Shown: piece after piece, positions 1 to 29,216 of the stretch
How positions within the stretch are numbered: the first letter of the stretch is position 1
Layout of the letters: each line of letters opens with the position of its first letter
Assembly (NCBI RefSeq): GCF_037902255.1
Contig: NZ_CP147990.1
Span: forward strand, 930,001-962,000
Direction of reading: 5' to 3'
DNA: 32,000 nt
From: Candidatus Electrothrix sp. GW3-4
GTDB lineage: Bacteria > Desulfobacterota > Desulfobulbia > Desulfobulbales > Desulfobulbaceae
Position numbers and translations under genes: made by a program
Notes under the pieces: generated by a model
The model's database searches: none
What the model was told of the DNA's origin: nothing
Seen by the model: the letters and a program-made list of their open reading frames with translations, nothing else

Positions 1-2087
1 CCTATGCTGCTCTGTGCCTCTATACTGCCGCCCATAAGTTTTGCAAAGGAACGGGAAATGGCCAAGCCGAGACCGGTCCCCTTGCTGTCGCGGCCGCTGC
101 CCGCCTGAAAAAATGGCTTGAAGACAGCCTCCAGATCTTTAGGCGGGATACCAGGACCCGTGTCTTCTATCTCCAGTTCAAGCCGCAGTCCTTGTCCTTG
201 AGCCACGGTCCGGGCCCGCAGGACCACACCGCCCTTGTCGGTGAATTTTACCGCATTACCCAGCAGGTTGATCAGGATCTGGCGCAGTTTGCCCGCATCT
301 CCGTTGACAAAGCGTTCGGTTTTCGGTGCAGTCTCCAGGCTGAACATAAGATTTTTGCTCCTGGCCCGGGAACGCATCATCTCTCCGATTTCCTCCAGCA
401 GCCTCGGCAGTTCAAAGGGTTCAGGATCCAGCTCTGTTCTGCCTGCTTCAATCTTGGAAAGATCAAGGATGTCGTTGATCATCGCCAACAGGTGCGCACC
501 GCTGCGGTTGATAATGGTGAGTTTCTCCTGTTGATTGCCTGTCGTCTGCGGGTCCTTGGCCAACATTCCGGAAAAACCGAGAATGGCGTTCAAGGGAGTA
601 CGCAGCTCATGGGACATGTTGGCCAGGAAGATGCTCTTGGCCAGGTTGGCCGCCTCAGCAGCATCTCTTTCCTTGCGTAATGCTGCCTCGGCGTTTTTGG
701 TATCAGTGATATCATGCATGGAAACAACCGCACCGAGTTTGCGTCCGTTCCTATCATGCATGACTTGCCCCGATGCCAGCAGGGTTCGCCGTTTGCCATG
801 CTCTGGTGCAATAACCATTTCCTGATCTTGCACGACTTCACCACAGAAGGCACGAAACAGCGGAATCTCCTCCTTGCGCATCAGGGTTACTCCGTCGGCT
901 GAATATAGATTATAATGATCCGCCCATTGGTCAGGAGGGATGCTTTTTTCACCTATCCCGTGAAACTTGCGCGTTGACTTATTGAACAAGGTAAGTATGC
1001 CGTGCCTGTCACAGGCCACAATGCCATCCTGGATGTTTTCCAACACCGCCTCAAAAAAAATTTGCTGCTGGGAGAGCTGGTCATTCACCCTGGAAAGTTC
1101 TTTGCTGCGTTTCTGTAAGGCAGAATTCACGATTTCCAATTCAGCAGTACGTTTCTTGACACGCTCCTTGAGTGAACGGTGGGTTTTCCATATTTGATAG
1201 ATATACAACAACATCAGGAAAAGAGCCAAGAGTGAAGTCGCTCCGGCCACACCCTTCAGTAACTGCGTTCGCTGTCGTTCCTTCCTGTCCAGAATTCCCA
1301 GCCATTTCGTGCGCAGATGCTCATAGGTTCCGTCCGCCATGACCACCATCAATCCTTCGTTCAGGAGGGCCAGTAACCCCTTGTCGCCTTCGGTAACAGC
1401 AAAACAGAAATCCTGACGGAGACCCTGGAGCGGTGCAATGGCTGTTTTCAGGTTATCCAGTTGTAAGCGTTCAATCAGATTGAGCCCGACCAGGCGTTGA
1501 ACAACCACTGCATCCAGTTTTCCTGCAGCCAGCTTTTGCATGGCCTCTTCAAAGGTTCGGGTTGTTACCAGCCTGTCCGTGAGCTTTCTTCGGCGCATAA
1601 ATTCTTCGGCATTATCGCCCTGCATCACCCCCACCCGGCGACCTTTGAGGTCTTGAGGCGTTTTGATCCCGTCTTCGTCTTTACGCACAAAAACAGCCCC
1701 GTAAAGTCTGAGATAAGGTACTGTGAAGTCAAATATAGCCTCCCGTTCTGGTGAACGACCGACCAGGGGCAGGGCATCCAGGCGTCCTTGTTCAAGGTCC
1801 TGTTTAATTGTTTCCCAAGGTCCGACAGTGAAAATGACCTTCCGGCCCATGGCCGTCAATGCTGCCCGCATCAGTTCAACCGAAAATCCATCGGCAGAAC
1901 CATCATTCCGCACAATGGAAAAAGGTGGATAATCCAGTTCAGATGCGGATATGACCGGATTTTTGTCCGCTGCTGTGCTGCTCTTGCAACCGATAGCAAG
2001 CGAAAAAATAACACAGACTAGGTGCAAAAATAGCGGCTGGCCTGAGCTGTTTTGTCGGGACGTTTTTCGGTTATTTCTTGTTGTCAT
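1..2087 (-). CDS. Sensor histidine kinase: periplasmic solute-binding-like domain, TM, PAS, HisKA, HATPase_c. The 3' end runs off the window.
   Basis: Absent from the ORF track because there is no stop inside the window. Manual minus-strand translation from ATG 2087..2085 gives MTTRNNRKTSRQNSSGQPLFLHLVCVIFSLAIGC (signal, lipobox-like). It continues with DYPPFSIVRNDGSADGF and GVMQGDNAEEF (amino-acid-binding-protein-like), TM LLALFLMLLYIY, PAS FFEAVLENIQDGIVACD, and H-box FLANMSHELRTPLNAILGF. N/G boxes are LINLLGNAVKFT, DTGPGI and GTGLGLAI. The plus-strand ORFs at 192-1197 are its antisense shadows. Confidence 0.85.
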   Translation of the reverse strand, partial: MTTRNNRKTSRQNSSGQPLFLHLVCVIFSLAIGCKSSTAADKNPVISASELDYPPFSIVRNDGSADGFSVELMRAALTAMGRKVIFTVGPWETIKQDLEQGRLDALPLVGRSPEREAIFDFTVPYLRLYGAVFVRKDEDGIKTPQDLKGRRVGVMQGDNAEEFMRRRKLTDRLVTTRTFEEAMQKLAAGKLDAVVVQRLVGLNLIERLQLDNLKTAIAPLQGLRQDFCFAVTEGDKGLLALLNEGLMVVMADGTYEHLRTKWLGILDRKERQRTQLLKGVAGATSLLALFLMLLYIYQIWKTHRSLKERVKKRTAELEIVNSALQKRSKELSRVNDQLSQQQIFFEAVLENIQDGIVACDRHGILTLFNKSTRKFHGIGEKSIPPDQWADHYNLYSADGVTLMRKEEIPLFRAFCGEVVQDQEMVIAPEHGKRRTLLASGQVMHDRNGRKLGAVVSMHDITDTKNAEAALRKERDAAEAANLAKSIFLANMSHELRTPLNAILGFSGMLAKDPQTTGNQQEKLTIINRSGAHLLAMINDILDLSKIEAGRTELDPEPFELPRLLEEIGEMMRSRARSKNLMFSLETAPKTERFVNGDAGKLRQILINLLGNAVKFTDKGGVVLRARTVAQGQGLRLELEIEDTGPGIPPKDLEAVFKPFFQAGSGRDSKGTGLGLAISRSFAKLMGGSIEAQSSI

Positions 2088-2628: not shown

Positions 2629-3087
2629 TTGAAAGAGGATTTCATGCCAAAAAAATACATTGTCCAATTGACTCCAAAAGAACGCTGTCATTTACAGGAG
2701 GTTATCAAAAAGCTTTCGGGGGGCAGCCAAAAAGTCCGTCGTGCTCACATCTTATTGAAAGCTGATGCAAATGGCCCCTGTTGGAAAGACAGCAGGATAG
2801 CAGAAGCATTCAACTGTAGGACAAAAACGGTTGAGAACATCCGTCAAAATTTTGTTTTGCACGGTTTTCAACAGGCTCTTGACGGAAAAAAACGTGCAAC
2901 CCCGCCTACTCCGAAACTATTGAATGGGGAGCAGGAGGTTAAAATCATTGCCACTCGTCTTGGTTCACCTCCGCCGGGATACGCAAATTGGTCACTGCGC
3001 CTTTTAGCCCGACATGTTGTTGAATTGGAAATAGTTCCGTCGATCAGCCATGAAACTATTCGCCAAGTAATAAAAAAAACGGGATGA
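2629..3087 (+). CDS. IS630-family transposase OrfA (HTH DNA-binding part)
   Basis: 152 aa, MPKKYIVQLTPKERCHLQEVIKKLSGGSQKVRRAHILLKAD..., matching the winged-helix/HTH N-terminal half of IS630 transposases. It ends VIKKTG* with a TGA overlapping the orfB ATG. Confidence 0.85.
   Translation: MKEDFMPKKYIVQLTPKERCHLQEVIKKLSGGSQKVRRAHILLKADANGPCWKDSRIAEAFNCRTKTVENIRQNFVLHGFQQALDGKKRATPPTPKLLNGEQEVKIIATRLGSPPPGYANWSLRLLARHVVELEIVPSISHETIRQVIKKTG
3072..3079 (+). promoter_or_regulatory. Probable -1 programmed frameshift site (A8 run) joining orfA and orfB
   Basis: The site is ATAAAAAAAACGGGATGA. orfB (codon phase of 3084) is -1 relative to orfA (phase of 3085). The -1 frame is open across the run (NKKNGMNN). 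A slip gives ...RQVIKKKNGMNNRKIQYWVIPP, which resembles the contiguous KKN-x-KPW-x-WxIPP junction of fused IS630 transposases. Confidence 0.55.
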
Positions 3088-3779
3088 ACAACCGGAAAAT
3101 CCAATACTGGGTTATTCCACCAAAACACGATGCGGAATTCGTGGCCAACATGGAAGATGTGATAGAGGTTTATGAAAGACCGTATAATCCTAATCATCCT
3201 TTTCTTTGTATGGACGAACAACCAGTTCAGCTGATAAAGGAAACTCGTTTACCTATCCCGGCAACTATAAATCATGCTAAACGCGTTGATTATGAGTATG
3301 AGCGTAACGGAACAGCCAGTATTTTCATGTTCACCGAGCCTCTTTCAGGCTGGCGTGAAGCCACAGCTCGTCCTCGGCGGACTAAAACAGATTGGGCGAT
3401 CGAAGTGGCTCGCCTCCTTGAAGGTCGCTATGCAGAATGTGAAAAGATAACGTTGGGTTGCGATAATCTCAACACCCATACAAAGGGAGCTTTTTATGAG
3501 GCTTTTCCTCCTGAACGTGCTCGTGCATTAGTACGCCGGATTGAATTTTGTTACACACCGAAACATGGTAGCTGGCTCAATATAGCAGAAAACGAATTGA
3601 GCTCCATGACTCGACAATGTCTTGCCAATCGTCGTATAGGAGATATCGAGACGTTACAGAAAGAGATTGCCGCATGGTCAAGCGATGTGAATAACACTCA
3701 ACGTGGTGTTGAGTGGCAAATGAAAATTTCTGATGCCCGTTGCAAATTAAAATCCGTTTACCCTAAAATTAAGTCGTGA
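3084..3779 (+). CDS. IS630-family transposase OrfB (DDE catalytic part)
   Basis: 231 aa with LCMDEQP, LGCDNLNTH and SWLNIAENELS, the DDE_3-like triad context. Confidence 0.85.
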   Translation: MNNRKIQYWVIPPKHDAEFVANMEDVIEVYERPYNPNHPFLCMDEQPVQLIKETRLPIPATINHAKRVDYEYERNGTASIFMFTEPLSGWREATARPRRTKTDWAIEVARLLEGRYAECEKITLGCDNLNTHTKGAFYEAFPPERARALVRRIEFCYTPKHGSWLNIAENELSSMTRQCLANRRIGDIETLQKEIAAWSSDVNNTQRGVEWQMKISDARCKLKSVYPKIKS

Positions 3780-3786
3780 CAGAGCA

Positions 3787-6700
3787 CTAGGTGTTATTTC
3801 TCTGTTTCCTGAGATACTTTGACATAACAGTGAACATCTCTTTTTCGTTAAAGGGCTTGCCGATATGTTCATTCATGCCTGCCTCTTTGCTTTTTTTCTG
3901 ATCTCTCGTCAGGACATTGGCAGTGAGAGCAATGACTGGCAGATCTTGATACTGCGGGAACTTACGAATCTCCTGACAGGCGGTGTAGCCATCCATGACC
4001 GGCATTTGGATATCCATCAGCACGCAGTCAAAGCTGGAGGTTTGCAAGATTTCCAGGGCCTCTGCCCCGTTGTTTGCCACCGTGACGACAATTCCCTTGC
4101 GGGTCAGGAGGAGCTTGGCGAGTTCCTGGTTGAGCTCATTATCTTCTACGAGCAGGACCTTGGCGCCCTTGAGATTGAGAAATTCTTCCTCAGAATTTGT
4201 TGCGTTCTTTTTCTTCTGCCTTCCCGGTTGTTCAGGCGAGTAAGCAACAAAGGGCAAGGTGAAATAAAAACGCGATCCTTGACCAGCGCCACTTTCAAAC
4301 CAGATTGTGCCACCCATCATTTCCACCAGTTTTTTACTGATGGAGAGACCGAGGCCGGTTCCTCCGAATTGCCGGGTGGTAGAGCTGTCTCCCTGACTGA
4401 ATGATTTAAACAGCTTGCTTTGTTGTTGGCTGTTCATGCCGATGCCTGTATCTGTAACACAGAACTCAAGTAAGACGATTTCATCCTGCTCATGGAGGCG
4501 TTCAACGTCTATTTTTACGTGGCCTCTGCTGGTGAATTTGACCGCATTATTTCCCAGGTTGATCAATATCTGTCTCAGGCGCAGTGGGTCGCCTTTCAGT
4601 CTTTCCGGTACCTCGGGTGAAATATCGATATCCAGGTGGAGCCCCTTTTCTGAGGCCTTTAATCCGATGATATTGGTAAAATGCTCAAAGACCTTGTCCA
4701 GGCGGAAGGGAATGGTCTCGATTTCAAGTTTTCCCGCCTCTATTTTGGAGAAGTCGAGGATGTCATTAATAATACCGAGAAGAGATTCCGCTGAGCTATA
4801 GACCTTCTCGATATAGTTTTTCTGTTCTGCATCAAGGGTCGTCTCCAGAGCCAGGCTGGACATACCGAGGATTGCATTCATCGGCGTACGAATTTCATGA
4901 CTCATATTGGCAAGAAATTCTGACTTTGCCTTGTTGGCTGCTTCGGCGCGTTGCTGAGCCTCTGCCAGTTTTTCGGTAATGTATTCGTATTCAGTCGTAT
5001 CTTCCAGGATTCCGTTGATGGCTAACAAGGTTCCATCGTCATTATAAACCGGATGGGAGGAGACCCTGATCGTGCGTAACTCACCGCCTGGATGGTGGAA
5101 CTGCATAGCATGCTGGATGAAGTCCGATTTTCCCTCTTTGATTCTGGAAAGATGAAAGCGGTGTTGCTCCAAGGATTCCGGGAGCCAATTGATGATTTTG
5201 CTCCAAGCTATGTTGCTCTTGGTTTTGTCTACTGCGCAGCCAAAGACCGAGCAGAGGCTGTCGCTGGCATAGGTCCAGACCTCCTCATCAGGAGACTGGC
5301 TGAAAACGACGAATTTGTCACCGATATTTTCGACCAGTCTGCGATATTTTTCCTGATTTTCTTGCAGCTGCCTTTCCTTTTTTTTCCGGTCGGTAATATC
5401 ATGGATGACCTGGAGGATTGCAGGGCCCGTGTCATCTTCTGTAAATTTTGTTGAAGTGATTTCAAAGATTCTTTCAGCACCGGAAGAGGGGAGAAAGCAG
5501 ACAGATTTTTCCTGTTCAATAGCGTTTTTTACATATATGCAGTCCCAGGGAGACTGTTGATCATCTGTGAGGAAGCCGCTGTTCTTGCCTGTCATATCGC
5601 CGAACCAGTTCATCATTACCTGATTCATGTAGCGAACCCTATGATTCGAGTCAATGATGATGAGTCCTTCACCTACCCTGGAGAGGGCATTGATAATGGC
5701 TGTGGATCGGGACTGACTCACTTCGAGATTGCTTTTGGCTCGTTGGAGGTCCGTAACCTTGTCATTGAGGAGGGCTGTGCGCTCACGGACCTCCTGTTCA
5801 AGAGCGGAGTTGGCCTCCCACATTTTTTGTTCAACCTTAGCCAGGTTACAGGAAGCATAACAGATAGCCAGGAAGAGAAGGAGAGTAACGCTGATAATCT
5901 TGAGACGGATTGTGGAAGTGAGCTCTGTCAGCTCCTGTTTGCTGATATGGGAGACCACCTTCCAGAGATAGTTGTCCGGTGTGTGGTGGAGAAGATGCAG
6001 CTCGCCAGCCCCACTTGTCTGAATGCCGTCCAGGGGATGTACCGTGCTCCAGATCCATAAACCATCTTTATTCTGCAAGGTACCTTTCTCTGTTTGTTGG
6101 ATTTTTTGCCAGGTTGTGGGGAATTTTTTTTCCAACCTCATATTTCTGAGATTGAACATGAAACCCCATTCATCAGCAGCATTCGGGCTAATCAACCAGT
6201 ACCCCTCCCTATTCAACACAGACACCCGGTTTCTGATTTTGAAGGTGGTGGCGAGAAAATTGTCCAGCATGTACCGGGCCGCGTAATTAATGATCAAAAG
6301 GCCACGTCGTTTGCCTGAGTGGTCGGTAAGGGGGGTGGCTATACGGATTGTCGGTTTAAAGGGGTATTCCAACTGACCACGTTCAATATTGAGGTCAAGA
6401 GGTGAGATGAAGATCTCTCCCAGAGAAAGTTTTAATGTTTCAGTAACATAATAACGACCGTTTTTATTCTGCAAGAGATGTGGCGGTGTCGTCTTGGGAC
6501 CATCAGATGCGTAATCGACACGTACTCGCTCCATCCCTGTTTCGTCGATCCAGCGAATCTGATCGTAATACCCTTTGATCCGAGAAAAATGGATGAAGTT
6601 TTCAGAGAGTCGTTCCAGGTTTTGTTGATCAGGATGTGTTATTTGATCAAGCAGACTGCTTTGACCAGCAAGATAGAGCAGGTCTCTGGAGATTTGTTTG

Positions 6701-10637: not shown

Positions 10638-11285
10638 TTACAGGCTCAGCTCTTTTTTCACGGCCTCAATAACCGCGTCGCTGGAGGTCGCCTCAACAGA
10701 GAGCAGCAGACCTTCTTTCTCGTAAAAACCGATCAGCGGTGCAGTCTTCTCGTTATAGGTGGCCAGACGATGGCTGATAGCCTCTTCGGTCTCGTCTTCA
10801 CGCTGTACAACCTTGGCGCCACACTTGTCGCAGATCCCTTCCTGCTTGGGCGGGTTGGACTTGACGTTGTAGATGGCCTGGCAGTCACCGTTCTCACAGG
10901 TACGGCGGGTGCAGAGACGATCCAGGATGATGTCCTTGGGCACATCGATGTTCACTGCCTTGTCCAGGGTGATGTCCAATTTTCCCATCAGCTCTTTCAG
11001 GGCCTCGGCTTGGGGAATGGTGCGCGGGAAGCCGTCCAGCAGGAAACCTTTGGCACAGTCATCTTCCTGAAGACGTTTTTCCATAATGCCCATGATCAGG
11101 GAATCAGGAACCAGGTCACCTCGTTTCATGTAGCCTTCTGCCTCTTTGCCCAGGTCGGTTCCGGCCTGCACTGCACCACGCAGGATGTCGCCAGTAGAGA
11201 TTTGGACAGAACCATCGATAGCGGTCAGCAGTTTAGCAACAGTTCCTTTGCCCGCACCGGGTGCGCCGAGAAGGATAAGTTTCAT
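10638..11285 (-). CDS. adk: Adenylate kinase with a Cys4 zinc lid
   Basis: 215 aa. It has MKLILLGAPGAGKGT (P-loop) and the lid CTRRTCENGDC...CDKCG. Confidence 0.95.
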   Translation of the reverse strand: MKLILLGAPGAGKGTVAKLLTAIDGSVQISTGDILRGAVQAGTDLGKEAEGYMKRGDLVPDSLIMGIMEKRLQEDDCAKGFLLDGFPRTIPQAEALKELMGKLDITLDKAVNIDVPKDIILDRLCTRRTCENGDCQAIYNVKSNPPKQEGICDKCGAKVVQREDETEEAISHRLATYNEKTAPLIGFYEKEGLLLSVEATSSDAVIEAVKKELSL

Positions 11286-11690
11286 GGGATTCTCCTTATA
11301 TGTATTCTTTGTGATTTACTGATAAAGCAGATAGATGAATTGAGCTGCTTTTCTGTTGAATATGAGGGCCAGACTCGCCCAAAAGAAAAAATGATCACTT
11401 TACACTATCTTGGTTATTGATGGTAGGGAAAATGTGGGGGGAGGGGATTTTCAGTCAATCAATCGTCTTTTCGTGAACGTGCGGAATGTTCAGGGGATCT
11501 ACCAAAAGACCGGGGTGCTTTACCGCTGTCAGGGTTATGATCTTCGCTTCGGTGTTCGGAAAACGCTCGGTGCGTCCTCCTTCTCTGATACGGTGTTTTT
11601 TGTCCGACTGCGGCTGAGATGACCTCACTAGCAGGGGATACAAAATAAATATACAGTTTTCACAGGGGATTATACGATTTTCTCCGGCAA

Positions 11691-11984
11691 AATTCATGCC
11701 GGAATCGGTCTGATGTACATTGGAATCGACGTAATTCCAATTGGAATTGCTCTGATTCCAATTGACTTTGGTCCAATTCCAATTGACTTTGCCTTGATTC
11801 CAATTGGAATTGCCCTGATGCAAATTTACTTTGACCCGATTCAAATTGACTTTACCCTGATTGAAGTGTGAATCGTCCCGTTTGAAGTTTAAATCACTCC
11901 GATTCAAATTTAAATTGGCCCGATGTAAGTTTAAATCGTCCTGATTCAAGTGTGAATCGTTTCAATTGAACCGGCAAAAAGACC
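11691..11984. repeat. Tandem array of about 13 strictly phased 21-bp units
   Basis: Units start at 11712, 11733, 11754 ... 11943 with no indels, for example aattccaattggaattgctct, gattccaattgactttggtcc and gattcaaattgactttaccct. Units 11733 and 11796 contain the perfect 14-bp palindrome ATTCCAATTGGAAT. Degenerate units lie at both ends. Confidence 0.9.
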
Positions 11985-12283
11985 GTTGCCGGTCACCTTC
12001 GGGAATTTGTTCCTGCAAAAGTAAGGGAGAATGCTATTGGGATTCGAACCTGAGAGCCCCCTCTGTATACCCCACTGCGCGGTTTGAAAATGGCATGTGA
12101 TACCGGGATGGATACATTCTTTTATTACAACAGCCAGTTTATCCTTGCGTTATGAATGTTCTTTGATTTATTAATTGTATTAGTCACAATTGATTAAGTT
12201 TCCATGTTATCAATAGATAACTGTTGATATCCTGGAAAAGCAAAAAAGAAATTAATAAACTGGAAATATTTTTCCAGTTTTCT

Positions 12284-12367
12284 CGCTTAATATGTAATAG
12301 CCTGGAAAGTTGGTCCATATATAGGGTAATACCCTATCCCGATTCCAGGTTATCCACACTGTTAGCG
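12284..12367 (+). other. Degenerate attC-like (or attI-like) site S0
   Basis: Layout: CGCTTAA tatgtaatag CCTGGAA agttggtccat ATAGGGTAaTACCCTAT cccga TTCCAGG ttatccacact GTTAGCG. The arms match about 16/24. The left box lacks the canonical AAC. Extra CTGGAAA/TTCCAG copies lie upstream at 12231-12280. Confidence 0.4.
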
Positions 12368-12390
12368 CCCAATCAATAAGGAATCAAAGA

Positions 12391-12861
12391 ATGAACCTAG
12401 AAATTAAATGGCATCAGCCAGCCTCACTTGAAGACGGCGACGATGAGAATTTAATTTACTCAGTAGACGGATTAGAAGAGTGGGAAGACTTACCCGCAAT
12501 CTATATGTTTTGTAGAAATTATGGTGGAGTATTGGTTCCATTATACATAGGAAGGTCAAAAAACGTTGGTCAGCGCATTAAACAGCACCTCAATACAACA
12601 AGGATGATGAAATCTATTCAGAAAGCACCCAAAGGAGAGAAAGTGCTAGTTATCGGTGAATTCATCCCAAAGCCAGGTCAAAGTATTGATTCATCGTTAA
12701 AGATACTAGAAAAGACATTGATCGAACATGCACTAACAGAGGGCTATGAACTTATCAATAAATCCGGCACTAAGACTCCGGTACATACCATTTCTTTGAG
12801 TGGATATAAAGCTGCTAAAGATTTCTCTGGCCCTAAAATGTATGCTAAATCAAAGCGCTAA
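12391..12861 (+). CDS. GIY-YIG family nuclease-like protein (cassette A)
   Basis: 156 aa. PAIYMFCRNYGGVLVPLYIGRSKNVGQRIKQHL supplies the GIY...YIG...R motifs. LEKTLIEH supplies the Glu and ELINKSG the Asn. RBS AAGGA lies 8 nt upstream. Confidence 0.7.
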   Translation: MNLEIKWHQPASLEDGDDENLIYSVDGLEEWEDLPAIYMFCRNYGGVLVPLYIGRSKNVGQRIKQHLNTTRMMKSIQKAPKGEKVLVIGEFIPKPGQSIDSSLKILEKTLIEHALTEGYELINKSGTKTPVHTISLSGYKAAKDFSGPKMYAKSKR

Positions 12862-12946
12862 CCATCTAATAAACCTGACCGGGTTAACAGCTGCGGCGCT
12901 GACGCGAATCAACTCCGTGGCCGGCAGGTTATCAGGGTCGTTGGAT
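12856..12946 (+). other. attC site S1
   Basis: R'' CGCTAAC overlaps the stop codon; an alternative register is ATCTAAT at 12864. R' is GTTGGAT at 12940-12946. The arms are TAAACCTG(A)CCGG and CCGGCAGGTTA with an unpaired A. It shares the core GCGGCGCTGACGCG with S2. Confidence 0.7.
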
Positions 12947-12962
12947 GGATGAATAAATAGAT

Positions 12963-13109
12963 ATGAGCCCCGAACTTCTATATTTGCTGTTGTTCCCGCA
13001 GCAGAAAACAACAATGTTACTCTTTATGCATCCCAGGTTTATGTTCGCTATGTGTTATTAGCGTTACTGGTGATCTATCCTTGCGAAAGGTGCGAAGGGA
13101 GGGGCTCAT
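12963..13109 (+). ncRNA. Candidate retron msr-msd non-coding RNA
   Basis: A 9-bp inverted repeat ATGAGCCCC (12963-12971) / GGGGCTCAT (13101-13109) brackets ~129 nt directly upstream of the RT start. A G at 12972 follows the left repeat, the position of the branching G in known retrons. Internal hairpins are TGTTGTT...AACAACA, CCAG..CGCTA-loop-TAGCG..CTGG, and CCTT-GCGA-AAGG. Confidence 0.5.
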
Positions 13110-13120
13110 TCTTTCTTATT

Positions 13121-14650
13121 ATGACTAAACTAAAGTCAAAATTAAACAAAACGGAAGAAGTTGCTACGGATCAGTTTTCTGTTTTAAATTCAGGGCAGGA
13201 TGTCGCAAACTTTCTCGAAATCCCCTATGGCCAATTACTTTACCTTTTGTATAAAAGGCCAGACGAAAAAAAATATATCTCTTTTTATATCCCCAAAAAA
13301 ACAAAAGGCCGCCGTCTGATATCAAAACCGATGAAAGGGATTGATATTTTACAACAAAAATTAAAGCCACATTTAGAATCATTCTACCGCACAAAAGCCC
13401 CTGTTCATGGATTTGTTAAAGGGAAAAGTATAGTTTCAAACGCCTCGGCACACAAAAAGCATAAATACGTTTTAAATGTTGACCTCGCCGATTTTTATGG
13501 AACCATCAATTATGGCCGAGTCCGGGGGGTATTTCTTGCTACACCATTTAAATTTGGAGAGAAAGCTGCAAGTGTTTTAGCTCAGTTAATCTGCTTTCAA
13601 AACAAATTGCCTCAGGGGGCATGTACATCTCCTGTCGTCTCAAATTTAGTTGCATCGAATTTGGATAAAAAGTTGGTCGCCTTGGCCAAAAGGTATCATT
13701 GCCAATACACGAGGTATGCAGACGATATTACAATATCTTGCAACAAAAAAACCTTCCCTCATTCTTTGGCAACATACGAAGGAAACAATCCAATTACTGG
13801 AGAGACAATTATAGGTAAGCTACTAGAAGACACCATTGACAGTGCTGGATTCAGAGTAAACCATTCAAAAGTAAGGCTGCAAATACCATTTATTCGTCAA
13901 TCAGTAACCGGACTTACTGTCAACGAATTCCCAAATGTTAACAGAGATTTCATCAGAAGTGTTCGCGCTATGTTGCATGACTGGAAGACCAATGGCCTAT
14001 TGACAGCCGAAAAAAATTATATATCAAAGCATCCACAAAAGAAAATTGACATTCCAGAAGATAAGTTAGATGGAACTTACTTCTTGAAAGTATTTTACGG
14101 TAAGCTTTCATTTATCAAAATGGTCAGGGCAGATAAAGAGAACAATGACTCAGTAGTTTCTAACTTTGCTCTAAAAGCTGGAGAGCTCGACCCTAATCCT
14201 CCTAAATACATCAAAGAAATTATGAAAAAAAGTGAATCTTTTGACATTTTTATTGGTCACGCTAGTGAAGACAAAGACGAAGTAGCAAGACCATTGTTTG
14301 AGGAATGTGAAAAACAAGGAATTATTGCTTTTATTGATGAAATACATATCTCTTGGGGAGATTCATTAACCGAAAAAATTAATCATGCACTTGGAAAGTC
14401 TAAATATTTTTTGGCCGTTCTGTCTGAAAAATCAATTAAGAAATCTTGGCCAAGAAAAGAGCTTAACAGTGCAGTAGCGAGAGAAATAAGTGGTGAGCAA
14501 AAAGTATTACCTTTAATTGTCGGGGATCACAAAAAAATATTTGCGGAGTTTCCACTCCTAGCGGACAAATTGTTTATCCAATGGGAAGGAGACGTAGAGC
14601 AAATTGTGGATGAAATAAAAAAATTAAAAGCAAAGCATCCAACAAAATAA
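13121..14650 (+). CDS. Retron-type reverse transcriptase fused to a C-terminal TIR domain (cassette B)
   Basis: 509 aa from ATG 13121; the track ORF starts at an upstream GTG at 13052. RT motifs: YISFYIPKKTKGRRLISKP, HGFVKGKSIVSNASAH (NAxxH), LNVDLADFYGTI, LPQGACTSPVVSNL, YTRYADDITIS (YADD at 13715-13726), GFRVNHSKV and SVTGLTVN (VTG). The C-terminal ~130 aa reads FDIFIGHASEDKDEVARPL...GKSKYFLAVLSEKSIKKSWPRKELN, which is TIR-like. Confidence 0.85.
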   Translation: MTKLKSKLNKTEEVATDQFSVLNSGQDVANFLEIPYGQLLYLLYKRPDEKKYISFYIPKKTKGRRLISKPMKGIDILQQKLKPHLESFYRTKAPVHGFVKGKSIVSNASAHKKHKYVLNVDLADFYGTINYGRVRGVFLATPFKFGEKAASVLAQLICFQNKLPQGACTSPVVSNLVASNLDKKLVALAKRYHCQYTRYADDITISCNKKTFPHSLATYEGNNPITGETIIGKLLEDTIDSAGFRVNHSKVRLQIPFIRQSVTGLTVNEFPNVNRDFIRSVRAMLHDWKTNGLLTAEKNYISKHPQKKIDIPEDKLDGTYFLKVFYGKLSFIKMVRADKENNDSVVSNFALKAGELDPNPPKYIKEIMKKSESFDIFIGHASEDKDEVARPLFEECEKQGIIAFIDEIHISWGDSLTEKINHALGKSKYFLAVLSEKSIKKSWPRKELNSAVAREISGEQKVLPLIVGDHKKIFAEFPLLADKLFIQWEGDVEQIVDEIKKLKAKHPTK

Positions 14651-14726
14651 TTCAGCGGATGGCGTTATCGTTGGCGGCGCTGACGCGGTAAGTTCATTGG
14701 CGCCACCGCTGATCATGACGTTAGGC
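14637..14726 (+). other. attC site S2
   Basis: R'' ATCCAAC is a perfect RYYYAAC and lies within the last codons of the RT-TIR ORF. R' is GTTAGGC at 14720-14726. The arms are CAGCGG(A)TGGCG and CGCCACCGCTG with an extrahelical A. Confidence 0.75.
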
Positions 14727-14766
14727 AACTACGGGTTAAAACTATACTCAACTGTGGACTTGAATC

Positions 14767-15240
14767 ATGGAAAGAAAACGGTCACCAACTCCCTTTACAG
14801 ATGACTTTCAAATGCTTTGTGCGTTGATAACTCACCTTGGCTCGCATGAGAAATGGCAATCAAGGACCCCAGCCGAAATTGGTGGTAGTCTTGCTATGGA
14901 TCCGAAAGAAGTTGAAAGAGTGCTCGGCGCCTTCCCTTGCTTTTTTCGAGAGTCAGCTAACAGAAAGAAAGGGCAGCGCTTATTTACGGTTCATCTCCGG
15001 TATGCCCGACGAAAAAAAGATCCTGTCACGGGTTCGCATGTTTCAGAGCCTATGACTCCAGAGGAAATTGGCATTTTAATAGATCTATTGACGCAAATGG
15101 TTTCAATTGAAACACAAGAGTCTCAATTCGTGGTCGAAATGAGAGAGAATAACCGGAGTCATGCGCGAAGTGTGTGGGTCGCTATAGCCATTGCGTTAAT
15201 TTCGTCTATAACATCGGTCGTAGTGTCAATTATAAAATAA
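14767..15240 (+). CDS. Hypothetical protein with an HTH-like N-terminal part and one C-terminal TM helix (cassette C)
   Basis: 157 aa. RTPAEIGGSLAMDPKEVERVLG is HTH-like. The C-terminal VWVAIAIALISSITSVVVSIIK is hydrophobic. Confidence 0.6.
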   Translation: MERKRSPTPFTDDFQMLCALITHLGSHEKWQSRTPAEIGGSLAMDPKEVERVLGAFPCFFRESANRKKGQRLFTVHLRYARRKKDPVTGSHVSEPMTPEEIGILIDLLTQMVSIETQESQFVVEMRENNRSHARSVWVAIAIALISSITSVVVSIIK

Positions 15241-15268
15241 CCATGCCCCATGCTTGGGTCGTTGTGTT

Positions 15269-15664
15269 CTAGTTATGTGCATGGTTTTGATTGGAAAGTT
15301 TATATTTGCGCCTAACAAGGCAAATCCAGCCGACGCGCCAAAGGCGCGCGCGGCTGATTTGCGGCGTTAGAGCATAATAGGGGTCAGAGCCCAATAACTG
15401 GCCAAATATTTTATCGGAACGACCAGGATTATCCATTGCATGGCCCTGCCTTCTTCCAATCCCGTAGAATGCTTCCCGCACATCATTTCCCACTGATTTT
15501 CCCTGCACTGCTGCTTCAAAAAGCAGGATGCACTTCCCCTTCGCAAAATCACATTCCCGCATAAATCTCCATCCCGTACAATCAAAACACATCGCTATAA
15601 ACCTGTCCTTGGGCATTCTCTCGCTGATGTAAAAGAGTTTACTCGCAACATCCTGAAAAGACAT
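15269..15664 (-). CDS. Hypothetical protein whose 3' end reads through attC S3
   Basis: This is a sub-ORF of 15269..15895 (-) from ATG 15664: MSFQDVASKLFYISERMPKDRFIAMCFDCTGWRFMRECDFAKGKCILLFEAAVQGK... It has no convincing RBS. The last ~35 codons are encoded by the reverse complement of attC S3 and the tail of cassette C. Confidence 0.35.
   Translation of the reverse strand: MSFQDVASKLFYISERMPKDRFIAMCFDCTGWRFMRECDFAKGKCILLFEAAVQGKSVGNDVREAFYGIGRRQGHAMDNPGRSDKIFGQLLGSDPYYALTPQISRARLWRVGWICLVRRKYKLSNQNHAHN
15310..15372 (+). other. attC site S3 (63 bp, compact canonical form)
   Basis: Layout: GCCTAAC-aaggcaaatc(c)agccg-ACGCGCC-aaa-GGCGCGC-gcggctgatttgcggc-GTTAGAG. The architecture is symmetric 7-16-7-3-7-16-7 with one extrahelical base. 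Confidence 0.85.
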
Positions 15665-15907: not shown

Positions 15908-17209
15908 TTACTTGGTCATGAAGTCAGCGTAGGCATGAGATCCGTGCTCGCCGTAATCCAGCCCCTCAATCTCTTCCTCTTCGGTAACCCGGAGGCCAAC
16001 GGTCATTTTGATGACGGTGAAGAGGATGAACGCGCAACCGAAGCTCCAGGCAAAGGCCGCACCAATACCGATCAGCTGGGTGGTGATGATCTTGGCAGTT
16101 ACCCCTTCCATATTGAACAGGCCCGCAGCCAGGGTACCCCAGGCGCCGCAGACACCGTGGACAGAGACCGCACCCACCGGATCATCAATGTGCATGCGAT
16201 CGATGATGACCACCGAGAGGACCACCAGGACACCAGCGATTGCACCGATAATGGCAGAGCTGGTCGGGCTGACATTGGCACAACCGGCAGTGATACCGAC
16301 CAGGCCAGCCAGGGCACCGTTAAGGCTCATACTGATATCCGGCTTCTTAAACATAACCCAGGAGGTGAGCATACCGGTAACGGCTCCGGCACAGGCAGCC
16401 AGATTGGTGTTGACAAAGATCATGGCGATGTCGGTGATGCCAGCGGTGGTGGAACCGGGGTTGAAGCCGAACCAACCCAGCCAGAGGATAAAGACGCCCA
16501 CAGCTGCCAGCGGGATGTTGTGACCAGGGATGGCCTTTACTTCTCCTTTTTTACCATACTTTCCTACGCGCGGTCCGATAACAATGGCACCGGCCAGGGC
16601 GGCCCAGCCACCGATGGAGTGAACAACCGTGGAGCCAGCAAAGTCGATGAAGCCCATACCTTCGAGCCAACCACCACCGTGGAACAGGCTGCCCCAGGCC
16701 CAGCTCCCGAATACCGGGTAAATAAAGGCGCAGAGTGCCGCGCTGTAGATCAGGTAGCTGGTGAATTTTGTCCGCTCAGCCATTGCCCCGGAAACGATGG
16801 TAGCAGCTGTTGCGGCAAAAACACACTGGAACATCCAGAAGGCAAGGACCCAAGGATCACCGCCAACCTTGAAATCGCTGAGGAAAAAACCGTCGGTTCC
16901 GAACCAACCTGTACCGCTGGTCCCGAACATCAGGCCAAAACCGATGGCCCAGAAGAACAGAGAACCCATGCTGAAGTCCATCAGGTTCTTCATCATGATA
17001 TTAATGGCGTTCTTGGCCCGGGTAAAACCGGCCTCAACCATGGCAAAGCCAGCCTGCATAAAGAAAACCAGGGCGGCAGCGACCAAGGTCCACACGTAGT
17101 CAAGGTTGGTCTGTACACCCTGGGCAGTGGGCTCGTCACCAGCACCAGCAAGGGTTGGTAACAGAGAGAGAGCAAGCAGGGCTCCGGTTAGCAGCGTTTT
17201 TTTCTTCAT
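15908..17209 (-). CDS. amtB: Ammonium transporter
   Basis: 433 aa from ATG 17209 (RBS AGGTGAG); the track ORF uses GTG at 17218. It has a signal peptide, then LDYVWTLVAAALVFFMQAGFAMVEAG, and is polytopic throughout. Confidence 0.93.
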   Translation of the reverse strand: MKKKTLLTGALLALSLLPTLAGAGDEPTAQGVQTNLDYVWTLVAAALVFFMQAGFAMVEAGFTRAKNAINIMMKNLMDFSMGSLFFWAIGFGLMFGTSGTGWFGTDGFFLSDFKVGGDPWVLAFWMFQCVFAATAATIVSGAMAERTKFTSYLIYSAALCAFIYPVFGSWAWGSLFHGGGWLEGMGFIDFAGSTVVHSIGGWAALAGAIVIGPRVGKYGKKGEVKAIPGHNIPLAAVGVFILWLGWFGFNPGSTTAGITDIAMIFVNTNLAACAGAVTGMLTSWVMFKKPDISMSLNGALAGLVGITAGCANVSPTSSAIIGAIAGVLVVLSVVIIDRMHIDDPVGAVSVHGVCGAWGTLAAGLFNMEGVTAKIITTQLIGIGAAFAWSFGCAFILFTVIKMTVGLRVTEEEEIEGLDYGEHGSHAYADFMTK

Positions 17210-17245
17210 TATTCTCACCTTGTTTCTATATATCCTAAGAAAAAA

Positions 17246-22417: not shown

Positions 22418-22750
22418 GCATTGAAGTGGCAGGCGACAGCCGTACCTAAAGGTGTTTTATACTGGGCACAGCTGATGTTTATATCATCCATCGCCATGAA
22501 GAAAACGTTGCTTCAATTCTCTGTCGTCCTTTTTCTCAGGCGACAAAACAGAACGGTCATGAACCGTTCCGTATGCATCATGACAAAGGCAAACCTTAGT
22601 TCAACTAAGCGGGTGCCCTGCTTTCCGATCGGAAACGGAAAGCTGATAAAGCCACAGCCGTCGCGAGGCGGTGTCGGAAAGCCACGGATCTCCAGGGAGG
22701 AGACAGCCGGGTTGCCTGCTTTACCTATAACCTATATCGGGAGGTATGTT
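22418..22750 (+). other. Long structured 5' leader; a possible riboswitch or cis-regulatory RNA, class not identified
   Basis: About 330 nt lie between the predicted promoter and the strong RBS/ATG at 22751. Stable hairpins: GAACGGT/ACCGTTC (22551-22569), CTTAG-TTCAA-CTAAG (22595-22609), GCTTTCCG/CGGAAAGC (22620-22643), and ACA(G)CCG/CGGTGT. The motif AAAGCCAC(A/G)G occurs twice. Confidence 0.3.
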
Positions 22751-23649: not shown

Positions 23650-25399
23650 CCCACATTCCGCACGTTGACACATAAAAAAATATTTTATAACCTGCTGCCT
23701 CAAAAAGACATTTAATAAATCAACCAGGCAGCAGGTATGGAAAACAACACAACGATTTTACCACAGGAATGCTCAAGTAAACTCCTCAATCACTTGGGCC
23801 TAGTCGCGGGTATGTATGACGAACTCGGACTTGGGGAGCTGATTGACAGTCTGATTCATCAGGATAAAGAAAAGCGAGTTGTCTCAGTTGGTCAGGCAGT
23901 TAAGGCAATGGTTCTTAACGGGTTGGGCTTTGCGAATCGGGCATTGTATCTGACCCCGCATTTTTTCCAGGATAAACCGGTAGATCGACTCATCGGAGAA
24001 GGCATTGAGGCCCAGCACCTGAACGATACTGTTTTGGGCCGGGCCTTAGAAGTGATTTACGAGCATAATCCCGAAGAGTTATATTCGCAGCTTGCAGCTA
24101 GGGCAATTGGTCGTCTAGGGCTGCTGGCACGTTTTGGTCACTTGGATTCAACGAGTTTTCATACCGACGGTCGCTATCCAGCCAACGGATCAGAAGAGGA
24201 AGAAGGTGTTATTCGGATCACAAAAGGCTACAGCCGTGATCATCGTCCGGATCTGAACCAGATCGTGTTGCAGCTCATTTGCGAACGACAGGCTGGCATC
24301 CCGCTTCTGATGAAGCCGTTAAGTGGTAACAGTAGCGATAAAACAGATTTTCGGGAAACAGTGCAAGCGCATATTGATCAGATGAAAAACGATTTCAGCC
24401 TGGAATATCTGGTTGCGGATAGTGCGCTCTATACAGCGCAAACATTAAAAGAACTGAGCATGATATTGTGGATTTCCCGTGTACCGGAGACATTGAATCT
24501 GTCCCAGGAGATCATCCATGAAGTAGCTTCAAATCTGATGCAGGATCCTGAAAAAGCAGCATCTCGCAGTCTCGGGGTAGTTTATGGCGATGTCAGGCAG
24601 CGCTGGTTGGTTGTCTATTCGCCTGAAGCATATCAACGGGGACGCAAGACCGTAAACAAAAAATGCCTCAAGCTGAGCACAAATGAATCCAAGCAATTCG
24701 ATAAATTGTGCAAACAGGATTTTGCCTGCGAGGCCGATGCATTGAAAGCACTGTCCCGTTTTGAAAAAAAGCTGAAAATACTCTCAATTCATGACGCTCG
24801 TGTTGTTGCTTTACCTCGCCATAAGGGCAAAGGACGGCCAGCCAAGGGCAAGAAACCGGACTTTTATGTTTACCGCATTGAAGGCAACCCAGCCTCCCTG
24901 CTTCAGGAGAGAACCCGATTGTTGGAACGAAAAAGCTGTTTTATTCTTGCAACGAATCAGTTGGACTGCGAAGAATTGTCCGACGAGGAACTCTTGAAAG
25001 TGTACAAAGATCAGCAAAAGGTTGAACGGGGTTTTCGTTTCCTCAAAGATCCTATGTTTATGGCTTCAACGCTTTTTTTAAAATCCCGAAAACGTATCAT
25101 GGCCCTGATGATGGTTATGACGCTTTGCCTCCTGGTGTACGCCGCGTTGGAATATCGCATCAGACAAGCGCTCGAAATAAATAATGAAACATTTCCCAAC
25201 CAGAAAGGAAAACCTGCCCCTAACCCTACTGCTCGTTGGGTATTTCAGTTTTTTTCAGGAATTCACCTGCTGCTTGTCGGCGGAATGCAACAGCTGGTCC
25301 TGAATTTAAATGAACATCATTTGCGTCTGCTGAAGCTGTTGGGTGGGAGATATGAAAAATTATATTCTGGAAATGGATAGAGGGTATGCTGAATGTGGG
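23650..25399 (+). mobile_element. IS1634-family (IS4-related) insertion sequence, 1750 bp
   Basis: Terminal inverted repeats are CCCACATTCCGCA (left) and TGCTGAATGTGGG (right), matching 12/13. A 6-bp direct repeat CCATGG sits at 23644-23649 and 25400-25405. It carries a single 547-aa transposase. Confidence 0.8.
23737..25380 (+). CDS. IS1634-family transposase
   Basis: 547 aa, with HLDSTSFHTDG...GYSRDHRPDLNQ...VADSALY...YKDQQKVERGFRFLK, motifs typical of IS1634/IS4-group DDE transposases. Confidence 0.8.
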   Translation: MENNTTILPQECSSKLLNHLGLVAGMYDELGLGELIDSLIHQDKEKRVVSVGQAVKAMVLNGLGFANRALYLTPHFFQDKPVDRLIGEGIEAQHLNDTVLGRALEVIYEHNPEELYSQLAARAIGRLGLLARFGHLDSTSFHTDGRYPANGSEEEEGVIRITKGYSRDHRPDLNQIVLQLICERQAGIPLLMKPLSGNSSDKTDFRETVQAHIDQMKNDFSLEYLVADSALYTAQTLKELSMILWISRVPETLNLSQEIIHEVASNLMQDPEKAASRSLGVVYGDVRQRWLVVYSPEAYQRGRKTVNKKCLKLSTNESKQFDKLCKQDFACEADALKALSRFEKKLKILSIHDARVVALPRHKGKGRPAKGKKPDFYVYRIEGNPASLLQERTRLLERKSCFILATNQLDCEELSDEELLKVYKDQQKVERGFRFLKDPMFMASTLFLKSRKRIMALMMVMTLCLLVYAALEYRIRQALEINNETFPNQKGKPAPNPTARWVFQFFSGIHLLLVGGMQQLVLNLNEHHLRLLKLLGGRYEKLYSGNG

Positions 25400-28065: not shown

Positions 28066-28524
28066 TTGAAAGAGGATTTCATGCCAAAAAAATACATTGT
28101 CCAATTGACTCCAAAAGAACGCTGTCATTTACAGGAGGTTATCAAAAAGCTTTCGGGGGGCAGCCAGAAAGTCCGTCGTGCTCACATCTTATTGAAAGCT
28201 GATGCAAATGGCCCCTGTTGGAAAGACAGCAGGATAGCAGAAGCATTCAACTGTAGGACAAAAACGGTTGAGAACATCCGTCAAAATTTTGTTTTGCACG
28301 GTTTTCAACAGGCTCTTGACGGAAAAAAACGTGCAACCCCGCCTACTCCGAAACTATTGAATGGGGAGCAGGAGGTTAAAATCATTGCCACTCGTCTTGG
28401 TTCACCTCCGCCGGGATACGCAAATTGGTCACTGCGCCTTTTAGCCCGACATGTTGTTGAATTGGAAATAGTTCCGTCGATCAGCCATGAAACTATTCGC
28501 CAAGTAATAAAAAAAACGGGATGA
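28066..28524 (+). CDS. IS630-family transposase OrfA
   Basis: The protein is identical to 2629..3087. Confidence 0.85.
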   Translation: MKEDFMPKKYIVQLTPKERCHLQEVIKKLSGGSQKVRRAHILLKADANGPCWKDSRIAEAFNCRTKTVENIRQNFVLHGFQQALDGKKRATPPTPKLLNGEQEVKIIATRLGSPPPGYANWSLRLLARHVVELEIVPSISHETIRQVIKKTG

Positions 28525-29216
28525 ACAACCGGAAAATCCAATACTGGGTTATTCCACCAAAACACGATGCGGAATTCGTGGCCAACATGGAAGATGTGAT
28601 AGAGGTTTATGAAAGACCGTATAATCCTAATCATCCTTTTCTTTGTATGGACGAACAACCAGTTCAGCTGATAAAGGAAACTCGTTTACCTATCCCGGCA
28701 ACTAAAAATCATGCTAAACGCGTTGATTATGAGTATGAGCGTAACGGAACAGCCAGTATTTTCATGTTCACCGAGCCTCTTTCAGGCTGGCGTGAAGCCA
28801 CAGCTCGTCCTCGGCGGACTAAAACAGATTGGGCGATCGAAGTGGCTCGCCTCCTTGAAGGTCGCTATGCAGAATGTGAAAAGATAACGTTGGTTTGCGA
28901 TAATCTCAACACCCATACAAAGGGAGCTTTTTATGAGGCTTTTCCTCCTGAACGTGCTCGTGCATTAGTACGCCGGATTGAATTTTGTTACACACCGAAA
29001 CATGGTAGCTGGCTCAATATAGCAGAAAACGAATTGAGCTCCATGACTCGACAATGTCTTGCCAATCGTCGTATAGGAGATATCGAGACGTTACAGAAAG
29101 AGATTGCCGCATGGTCAAGCGATGTGAATAACACTCAACGTGGTGTTGAGTGGCAAATGAAAATTTCTGATGCCCGGTGCAAATTAAAATCCGTTTACCC
29201 TAAAATTAAGTCGTGA
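28521..29216 (+). CDS. IS630-family transposase OrfB
   Basis: It differs from 3084..3779 at two residues: I62K, and G125V next to the second catalytic Asp. Confidence 0.85.
   Translation: MNNRKIQYWVIPPKHDAEFVANMEDVIEVYERPYNPNHPFLCMDEQPVQLIKETRLPIPATKNHAKRVDYEYERNGTASIFMFTEPLSGWREATARPRRTKTDWAIEVARLLEGRYAECEKITLVCDNLNTHTKGAFYEAFPPERARALVRRIEFCYTPKHGSWLNIAENELSSMTRQCLANRRIGDIETLQKEIAAWSSDVNNTQRGVEWQMKISDARCKLKSVYPKIKS

Follow-up and report, generated by a model that had tools for sequence, protein, structure and literature searches.

A probable type XII retron (Retron-TIR) carried as a single gene cassette in the cable bacterium Candidatus Electrothrix sp. GW3-4

We analysed a stretch of DNA of 32 kb, hereafter the window, from the cable bacterium Candidatus Electrothrix sp. 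GW3-4. It very probably holds a type XII retron (Retron-TIR) that is carried as one gene cassette, the second of three in a cluster of attC sites lacking integron integrases (CALIN) between adk and amtB. The cassette measures 1780 bp and is bounded by G|TT crossovers at 12940/12941 (GTTGGAT) and 14720/14721 (GTTAGGC). It comprises a non-coding RNA (ncRNA), a gene for a reverse transcriptase (RT) fused to a TIR domain, and an attC site. A preliminary description of the same DNA had given the 1780-bp interval between the G|TT points, a 147-nt segment bracketed by an inverted repeat, a gap of 11 nt and an open reading frame (ORF) of 509 aa, and all of these coordinates hold. The features that carry the argument are as follows.

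12941-14720, + strand: retron cassette, second of three, with the ncRNA, the RT-TIR gene and attC S2; ends set by boundary match and blastn homology
12963-13109, + strand: retron ncRNA (msr-msd), 147 nt, supported by RNAalifold, pair counts and a covariance model
13121-14650, + strand: RT-TIR ORF, 509 aa, ATG at 13121; RT domain at nt 13289-13879, TIR domain at nt 14246-14590
12856-12946, + strand: attC S1, R'' CGCTAAC (12856-12862, overlapping a stop codon), R' G|TTGGAT
14637-14726, + strand: attC S2, R'' ATCCAAC (14637-14643), R' G|TTAGGC
15310-15372, + strand: attC S3, canonical, 63 nt, R'' GCCTAAC, R' G|TTAGAG

Judged by sequence and by a structure model, the RT-TIR protein is a predicted standard type XII retron RT with a catalytically equipped TIR domain, because domain, family, residue and structure comparisons agree. 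Pfam detected RVT_1 at residues 57-253 (E 1.8e-20) and TIR_2 at residues 376-490 (E 1.9e-18). The best PADLOC model was RT-TIR_XII (E 8e-172, residues 11-503), followed by RT-Protease_XI and RT-Toprim_I-C. The NCBIfam equivalog Retron_TIR_antiphage (NF042941) scored 608.2 bits against a cutoff of 600, a narrow margin, and the non-retron NCBIfam models gave 47 bits (group II intron RT), 34.5 bits (Drt2) and 29.6 bits (Drt3a). A 100%-identical NCBI protein from Ca. Electrothrix sp. GW3-4 bears the title 'TIR domain-containing anti-phage reverse transcriptase'; exact look-ups of the window protein, P0026 and P0054 matched no record.

The four motifs named in the preliminary description were all found, namely NASAH (N107-H111), YADD (Y199-D202, within RYADD at 198-202), SVTGLTVN (V262-G264) and SWPRKEL (E447), and they are conserved across 28 aligned homologues (44-89% identity). 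The N, A and H of NAxxH, the VTG, the ADD of YADD and the TIR residues W443, P444 and E447 are invariant in that alignment, and the tyrosine of YADD is conserved in at least 90%. Residue E447 aligns with the glutamate of the motif WTNYEL in AbTir, which we take to be the catalytic residue of that enzyme. A sequence search of the PDB placed the RT nearest to retron Ec67/Eco2 (E 7e-57) and the TIR domain nearest to 7UXR and AbTir (about E 1e-22). The AlphaFold (AF2) model, made from the alignment, has a mean pLDDT of 85.6. Foldseek ranked Eco2 first against this model (E 6e-33), followed by the retron RTs Eco7, Ec86, Ec78, Ec83 and Eco8, with group II intron, diversity-generating retroelement (DGR), Abi and defence-associated RT (DRT) enzymes below them. 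The modelled C-terminus superposed on AbTir (7uxu) with an rmsd of 1.7 Å and a TM score of 0.89. The two earlier domain assignments are thus upheld, the RT being placed with retrons, not with Abi, DRT or group II enzymes, by PADLOC, NCBIfam and Foldseek, and the C-terminal TIR domain by the TIR_2 match and the superposition on AbTir.

The 147-nt RNA upstream of this gene belongs to a conserved, covarying family that is specific to RT-TIR genes. Its outer arms, a1 ATGAGCCCC (12963-12971) and a2 GGGGCTCAT (13101-13109), pair over 9 bp, and the ATG of the RT-TIR gene sits 11 nt 3' of this inverted repeat. Inside the arms, an inner helix joins CTTC (12975-12978) with GAAG (13094-13097), an msr hairpin pairs 12983-12990 with 12998-13005, and a variable msd region extends over about 13019-13090. 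As a single sequence the RNA is weak. The 9-bp repeat alone has a rough expectation of about 0.06 per region, the fold of the whole 147 nt is unremarkable taken singly (z = -1.65), and Rfam, searched with its gathering threshold and with E <= 10, gave no family in 12300-15500, for the ncRNA and the attC sites alike. We regard the RNA as real because the comparative covariation is decisive.

For this comparison, RT-TIR loci of 43-89% protein identity were collected together with the window, and 16 sequences were aligned with MAFFT. The same layout was found 5' of every collected RT-TIR gene: a 5' arm, the block CTTCTAYRTYTGCTGTTGATCCTGCGGCAGAA, a variable hairpin, the block AAGGTGCGA and a complementary 3' arm. 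In other lineages the arms are wholly different in sequence yet complementary, as in the pairs GCATCTCGTCC / GGACGAGATGC, GCCCCCGGACCTTC / GAAGGTCCGGGGGC and TGGTTTCAACCCAA / TTGGGTTGAAACCA. An upstream inverted repeat, which the preliminary description expected at homologous loci, is therefore present at all of them, with compensatory changes. RNAalifold independently recovered both the a1/a2 helix and the msr hairpin from the 16 sequences. In the modelled helices 97% of cells pair, versus 44-54% when the partners are slid. Compensatory changes occur in 16 of the 21 pairs, of which 13 belong to a1/a2 and 3 to the msr hairpin. Double changes are seen in 62 cells, and none of 500 shuffles reached the observed pairing values. 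A covariance model built from the alignment gave a single match in the window, at 12965-13107 with 115.7 bits, level with the top family members. It also matched an E. coli plasmid locus outside the training set, immediately 5' of the RT-TIR gene (E 1.8e-6), where the ncRNA carries its own arms, CGGCTCTGCC / GGCAGAGCCG.

Two side observations were made with this model. A metagenome-assembled genome (MAG) of Hyphomonadaceae (L008) has two tandem, divergent ncRNA copies (3594-3708 and 3795-3910; 88.8 and 84.3 bits) before one RT-TIR gene. Weak partial matches, mainly to the msr hairpin, were found in L010, L011, L013-L016, L023, L027 and L032, about 50-290 nt 5' of retron RTs without a TIR domain, which suggests an msr core common to related retron types.

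The ends of the retron unit are genuine cassette boundaries. Integron recombination takes place between the G and the TT, and the first bases of a cassette are thus complementary to the R'' of its own attC site. This complementarity is seen in 3/3 cassettes of the window. Cassette 1 starts with TTAGCG(C) at 12362, the reverse complement of (G)CGCTAA at 12855-12861, which takes in six of the seven R'' bases of S1, from the first onward; the retron cassette starts with GTTGGATG at 12940 (G|TTGGATG), the reverse complement of CATCCAAC at 14636; and cassette 3 starts with GTTAGGC at 14720, the reverse complement of GCCTAAC at 15310. The same holds at the related loci L082, L084, L087 and L090. Moreover, blastn homology to L084 (74% protein identity) covers 12940-14645 and that to L082 (70%) covers 12942-14646, with unrelated DNA outside. 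The homology begins at the crossover G and ends just beyond R''. The boundaries are confirmed, despite the weak folds of S1 and S2 described below, because of these homology breakpoints and the relatives found in integrons.

The sites themselves show elements of attC sites. S1 has the L-box AACCTG(A)CCGG / CCGGCAGGTT with one extrahelical base, and S2 reads ATCCAAC - 8 nt - TCAGCGG(A)TGGCG ... CGCCACCGCTGA - 7 nt - GTTAGGC, also with one extrahelical base. The bottom strand of S3 folds at -22.2 kcal/mol (z = -5.0) with two bulged bases, and 0/200 shuffles were equally stable. The extrahelical or bulged bases of S1, S2 and S3 all lie on the expected R''-L'' arm. A 14-nt core, GCGGCGCTGACGCG, is identical in S1 and S2 (12893-12906 and 14674-14687), and the attC site of L095, an 82% homologue from another sample, has GCGGCGCTGACGCG too, at 1796-1812 within GGCGGCGCTGACGCGG. 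This shared core points to a putative array- or host-specific attC type, as with the Vibrio cholerae repeats (VCRs). The crossovers given for S1 and S2 in the preliminary description stand; the limits do not, as both sites start further upstream, and the R'' of S2 falls within the final codons of the RT-TIR gene. Folding S1 and S2 within the earlier, approximate limits produced misleading hairpins, and the limits were reset by start-to-R'' matching. A window scan for AAC...GTT pairs with a constrained DNA fold was unspecific, since long G+C-rich stretches beat the real sites, and it was not used; per nucleotide, only S3 stood out in it.

Relatives of the retron were sampled as L-numbered loci, for which the identities given are protein identities to the window RT-TIR. 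Among those of 64-89% identity, 6/6 are cassette-borne or retain cassette remnants, and 2/6 lie beside remnants of an integron integrase. The most informative loci are listed below.

L094, 89%: GTTGGATG boundary preceded by an AT-rich spacer whose promoter-like sites face the cassette; first cassette
L095, 82%: an S2-type attC follows the gene
L086, 77%: R'' and the start of L'' kept, then divergence; decayed cassette
L090, 64%: array behind a C-terminal remnant of intI, 1751-2083 on the - strand, E 1.4e-39
L087 (V. cholerae), 50%: one cassette, made up of gene and ncRNA, with a VCR on either side, in an 8-VCR array with a Phd/ParE pair

In L094, the divergent ORF 186-623 (- strand) corresponds to an integron integrase of which the N-terminal third is left (TIGR02249, E 3e-32), and the boundary there meets an attI/intI platform; intI is truncated in both L090 and L094. 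In L084, the boundary GTTGGATG abuts unrelated attC sites. The attC of L086 is truncated after TCAGCGGAC and the 5' boundary of this locus is mutated. The V. cholerae RT-TIR cassette was found twice, as L087 and L088. The attC sites that the preliminary description expected at homologous loci were accordingly located in the V. cholerae superintegron and in L082, L084, L090, L094 and L095. Sequence comparison shows that the same retron cassette occurs in other integrons, and its distribution crosses phyla (Desulfobulbaceae, Vibrio and several uncultured lineages). More distant RT-TIR relatives, outside cassettes, were found in Nitrosomonas, in V. splendidus, as the E. coli plasmid copy and in L001-L008, which are mostly alphaproteobacterial MAGs. 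The genome scan, among the matches listed, returned mostly other retron types, its RT-TIR loci being L001-L008, and a metagenome scan with the single window protein returned one partial locus. None of the 72,556 plasmids searched with tblastn was found to carry an RT-TIR within an integron.

Based on analogy with characterised retrons, we propose the following mode of action. The RT would recognise and bind the msr hairpin, use a guanosine 2'-OH close to the a1/a2 duplex as primer, and copy the msd part into multicopy single-stranded DNA (msDNA). The RT-msDNA complex would hold the fused TIR effector inactive until a phage factor damages or binds the msDNA. The freed, AbTir-like TIR domain might then destroy NAD+, and infection would be aborted. 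In Eco2, the TOPRIM domains stay caged by the msDNA as long as the latter has not been degraded by the phage nuclease DenB, and the Retron-TIR of Shigella dysenteriae is reported to protect E. coli against T5. According to a secondary account of Gao et al. 2020, msDNA synthesis and structure were needed for defence by the tested retrons, Retron-TIR included, and effector domains, RT-fused or additional, were likewise reported as necessary. As for mobility, the unit could be cut out if an integron integrase (IntI), supplied in trans, were to recombine S1 with S2 at G|TT as folded bottom strands, and the excised unit could reinsert at an attI site.

Several observations weigh against a working retron cassette at this locus, and they are taken here together with the alternatives that draw on them. 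The first concerns expression. No sigma-70-like promoter was found upstream of the retron on the + strand of the window, and this copy may be silent. The cassette boundary lies 22 nt from a1, a distance that is 18-24 nt in 3/4 loci measured in the window's clade (the window, L082 and L084) and 63 nt in L090. The space between boundary and a1 fits at most the -10-like AATAAA. Therefore, the cassette holds no full promoter and transcription must enter from upstream. Relatives outside cassettes, in contrast, carry a TTGACA box 35-40 nt 5' of a1, which in L091 forms TTGACA-16-TATATT. Transcription might enter from a neighbouring cassette or from an integron promoter, as in L094, and expression would then depend on the position in the array. 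We raise only tentatively, as the less likely case, that the clade of 64-100% identity is an integron-adapted type XII lineage whose ncRNA lost its own promoter, with msDNA production and TIR arming set by the position relative to the integron promoter. If so, the msr 5' end would need processing of a read-through transcript, and retron immunity would be regulated by integron shuffling.

The second observation concerns mobility. No ORF for an integron integrase or other tyrosine recombinase was found anywhere in the 32-kb window, in agreement with the integrase-less cluster between adk and amtB described earlier, and the cassette may thus be immobile here. Therefore, the locus is filed as a CALIN and not as a complete integron, an intI/attI head being absent within the window. 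Together with the lack of a promoter-like site, this leaves a substantial, though minority, possibility that the cassette is genuine but a fossil, neither expressed nor mobile, kept as a silent stored copy or already decaying. The decay seen in L086, with its truncated attC and mutated 5' boundary, and the truncated intI of L090 and L094 would fit such a history. However, the 509-aa ORF is intact with every catalytic and family-invariant residue present, the ncRNA at 115.7 bits equals the best family members, the G|TT cores are kept in all three attC sites and each cassette start fits its own R''. In addition, integrase activity could be provided in trans from another part of the 4.6-Mb genome.

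A further group of observations concerns the attC sites. S1 (z = -0.5) and S2 (z = -1.4) fold no better than shuffled sequence, the R'' of S1, CGCTAAC, deviates from RYYYAAC at two positions, and a chain of three self-consistent cassettes turns up in 3.4% of shuffles. The unpaired spacers of S1 and S2 are unusually long, at 8-9 nt, and exceed those of canonical attC sites. S1 and S2 might on these grounds be some other palindromic repeat, such as a repetitive extragenic palindromic (REP)-like element or a terminator, and the retron part of an ordinary low-GC defence islet; the missing integrase and the non-integron contexts of the more distant relatives L091, L092, L093 and L001-L008 agree with this. 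We consider it very improbable, as homology breaks exactly at G|TT and at R'', the boundary GTTGGATG recurs next to an attI/intI platform (L094) and next to unrelated attC sites (L084), the R''/R' cores are present with the extrahelical bases on the expected arm, and the V. cholerae homologue lies between VCRs.

The last group concerns msDNA. In the 16 aligned sequences, the a1 helix is not followed at once by an invariant G that could be assigned as the priming or branching G; the earliest invariant G residues, 12986 and 12989, belong to UGCUG in the msr hairpin. The msd hairpin in the window's clade is no better than shuffles (z about -0.2 to -1.3), as against z = -4 to -6.5 for the very stable one in alphaproteobacterial relatives. 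The ends of the RNA alignment were picked via the inverted repeat, which favours the a1/a2 helix but not the msr hairpin. That the RT-TIR is an Abi- or DRT-like defence RT without msDNA, the upstream RNA being a leader or regulatory element, would suit the missing invariant G, the weak msd hairpin and the entry 'nd' for the type XII ncRNA structure in Mestre et al. 2020, but is hardly credible given the retron-specific motifs, retron hidden Markov models scoring far above the DRT and group II models, an msDNA-making enzyme (Eco2) as the nearest structure, the standard retron layout of an a1/a2 duplex around a conserved 5' part and a variable hairpin, and the need for msDNA synthesis and structure in the secondary account of Gao et al.

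The type XII retron cassette of the window is best read against several bodies of published work. Mestre et al. 2020 listed the fusion of an RT to a C-terminal TIR_2 domain as retron type XII (clade 8), in line with the preliminary description. The Retron-TIR of S. dysenteriae NCTC2966, tested by Gao et al. 2020, has the same architecture of an upstream ncRNA and a single RT-TIR_2 protein. The window protein clears the NCBIfam equivalog cutoff for this group, and the ncRNA family is common to the window and the E. coli plasmid RT-TIR locus. The window protein differs in being only ~43% identical to the enterobacterial representative compared, and in its host, a cable bacterium. The window retron lies between attC sites, whereas the E. 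coli Retron-TIR copy has a site-specific integrase and a dinI-like gene as neighbours; and it has no promoter of its own, whereas the non-cassette relatives have the TTGACA box. Retron Eco2/Ec67 (type I-C, RT-TOPRIM) has the closest solved RT by sequence and structure and is likewise a single protein with its effector in cis. The effector of Eco2/Ec67 is a TOPRIM RNase, and that of the window protein is a TIR domain, a predicted NADase, behind linker helices predicted at residues 290-370.

Integron cassettes have been described as stores of compact defence systems by Darracq et al. 2025, by Kieffer et al. 2025 ('BRiCs') and by Getz et al. These cassettes are likewise compact, single-gene-sized and attC-bounded, and they too sit in sedentary chromosomal arrays, that of V. 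cholerae among them. Unlike them, the window cassette adds a non-coding RNA gene to the ORF, and its 1.78 kb make it long for a cassette. Neither the text of the Darracq preprint nor one supplementary file mentions retrons, and in the Kieffer preprint they appear only as a comparison. A table in Boucher et al. 2011 gives 8 retron-type RTs in V. cholerae cassettes versus 2 outside, and the L087/L088 cassette is presumably of the kind counted there. That table is a count of a protein class only; the ncRNA, the TIR fusion and cassette homology across phyla are not covered. No paper describing a retron together with its RNA as a cassette came up in literature searches that paired 'retron' with integron terms.

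Both Retron-TIR and integron defence cassettes have been published, and the unit in the window is a further example of known things. The high novelty claimed for it in the preliminary description is overstated, as type XII was already classified, the protein already named by NCBI, defence cassettes published in 2025 and cassette RTs tabulated in 2011. Nevertheless, retrons join the defence systems that integrons can stockpile and shuffle, and the case, resolved to the base and across phyla, indicates that template RNA, RT and effector fit one cassette and have moved as such. The consensus structure for the type XII ncRNA, not determined in the 2020 classification, is a small addition. The locus raises the question of how a promoterless retron is expressed, and it overturns nothing. 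Compact single-protein retrons with defined mobile boundaries may be of use as portable msDNA producers. The idea that cassette-borne retron RTs are the RT postulated for cassette genesis found no support here and was set aside as extremely improbable.

The surroundings of the retron cassette comprise the following features.

10638-11285, - strand: adk, flanking the array on one side
12284-12367, + strand: S0, a degenerate attC-like (or attI-like) site with R''-like CGCTTAAT, L-box CCTGGAA/TTCCAGG and R' G|TTAGCG
12362-12940, + strand: cassette 1, a 156-aa GIY-YIG protein (ORF 12391-12861; Pfam GIY-YIG, E 5e-6) and attC S1
14721-15366, + strand: cassette 3, a 157-aa ORF (14767-15240) and attC S3; set by start/R'' match
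15908-17218, - strand: amtB, flanking the array on the other side

S0 opens the array and is the weakest of the four sites (bottom-strand fold, z = -2.1). The GC content is 0.37-0.41 across ~11500-15400 against ~0.5 in the flanks, making this region a low-GC islet. Two PADLOC candidates, PDC-S14 and UzuA, are weakly similar to the GIY-YIG protein of cassette 1 (E about 4e-4 to 8e-4), and cassette 1 may be another defence cassette. The ORF of cassette 3 had no match in Pfam, PADLOC or NCBIfam. Cassettes 1 and 3 were rejected as retron accessories, since the neighbouring genes of the retron vary at every related locus.

Between adk and the cassettes, a tandem array at 11698-11970 holds ~12 copies of a 21-nt unit, many of which contain the small palindrome AATTCCAATTGGAATT; a 164-aa ORF that overlaps the array had no Pfam match. 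At ~12041-12051, GGATTCGAACC looks like the reverse complement of a tRNA T-arm and may be what is left of an integration site bordering the low-GC islet; ARAGORN calls no tRNA there. The wider neighbourhood is rich in mobile elements. Two copies of an element of the insertion sequence family IS630 lie at 2629-3779 and 28066-29216 (+ strand), each with ORFs of 152 and 231 aa that jointly span the transposase model, which suggests a frameshift. A 547-aa transposase with DUF4277 and DDE_Tnp_1 is encoded at 23737-25380 (+ strand). Finally, a cyclic di-GMP-I riboswitch aptamer (c-di-GMP-I, RF01051) was detected at 22641-22719 (+ strand) with 53.1 bits against a gathering score of 35.

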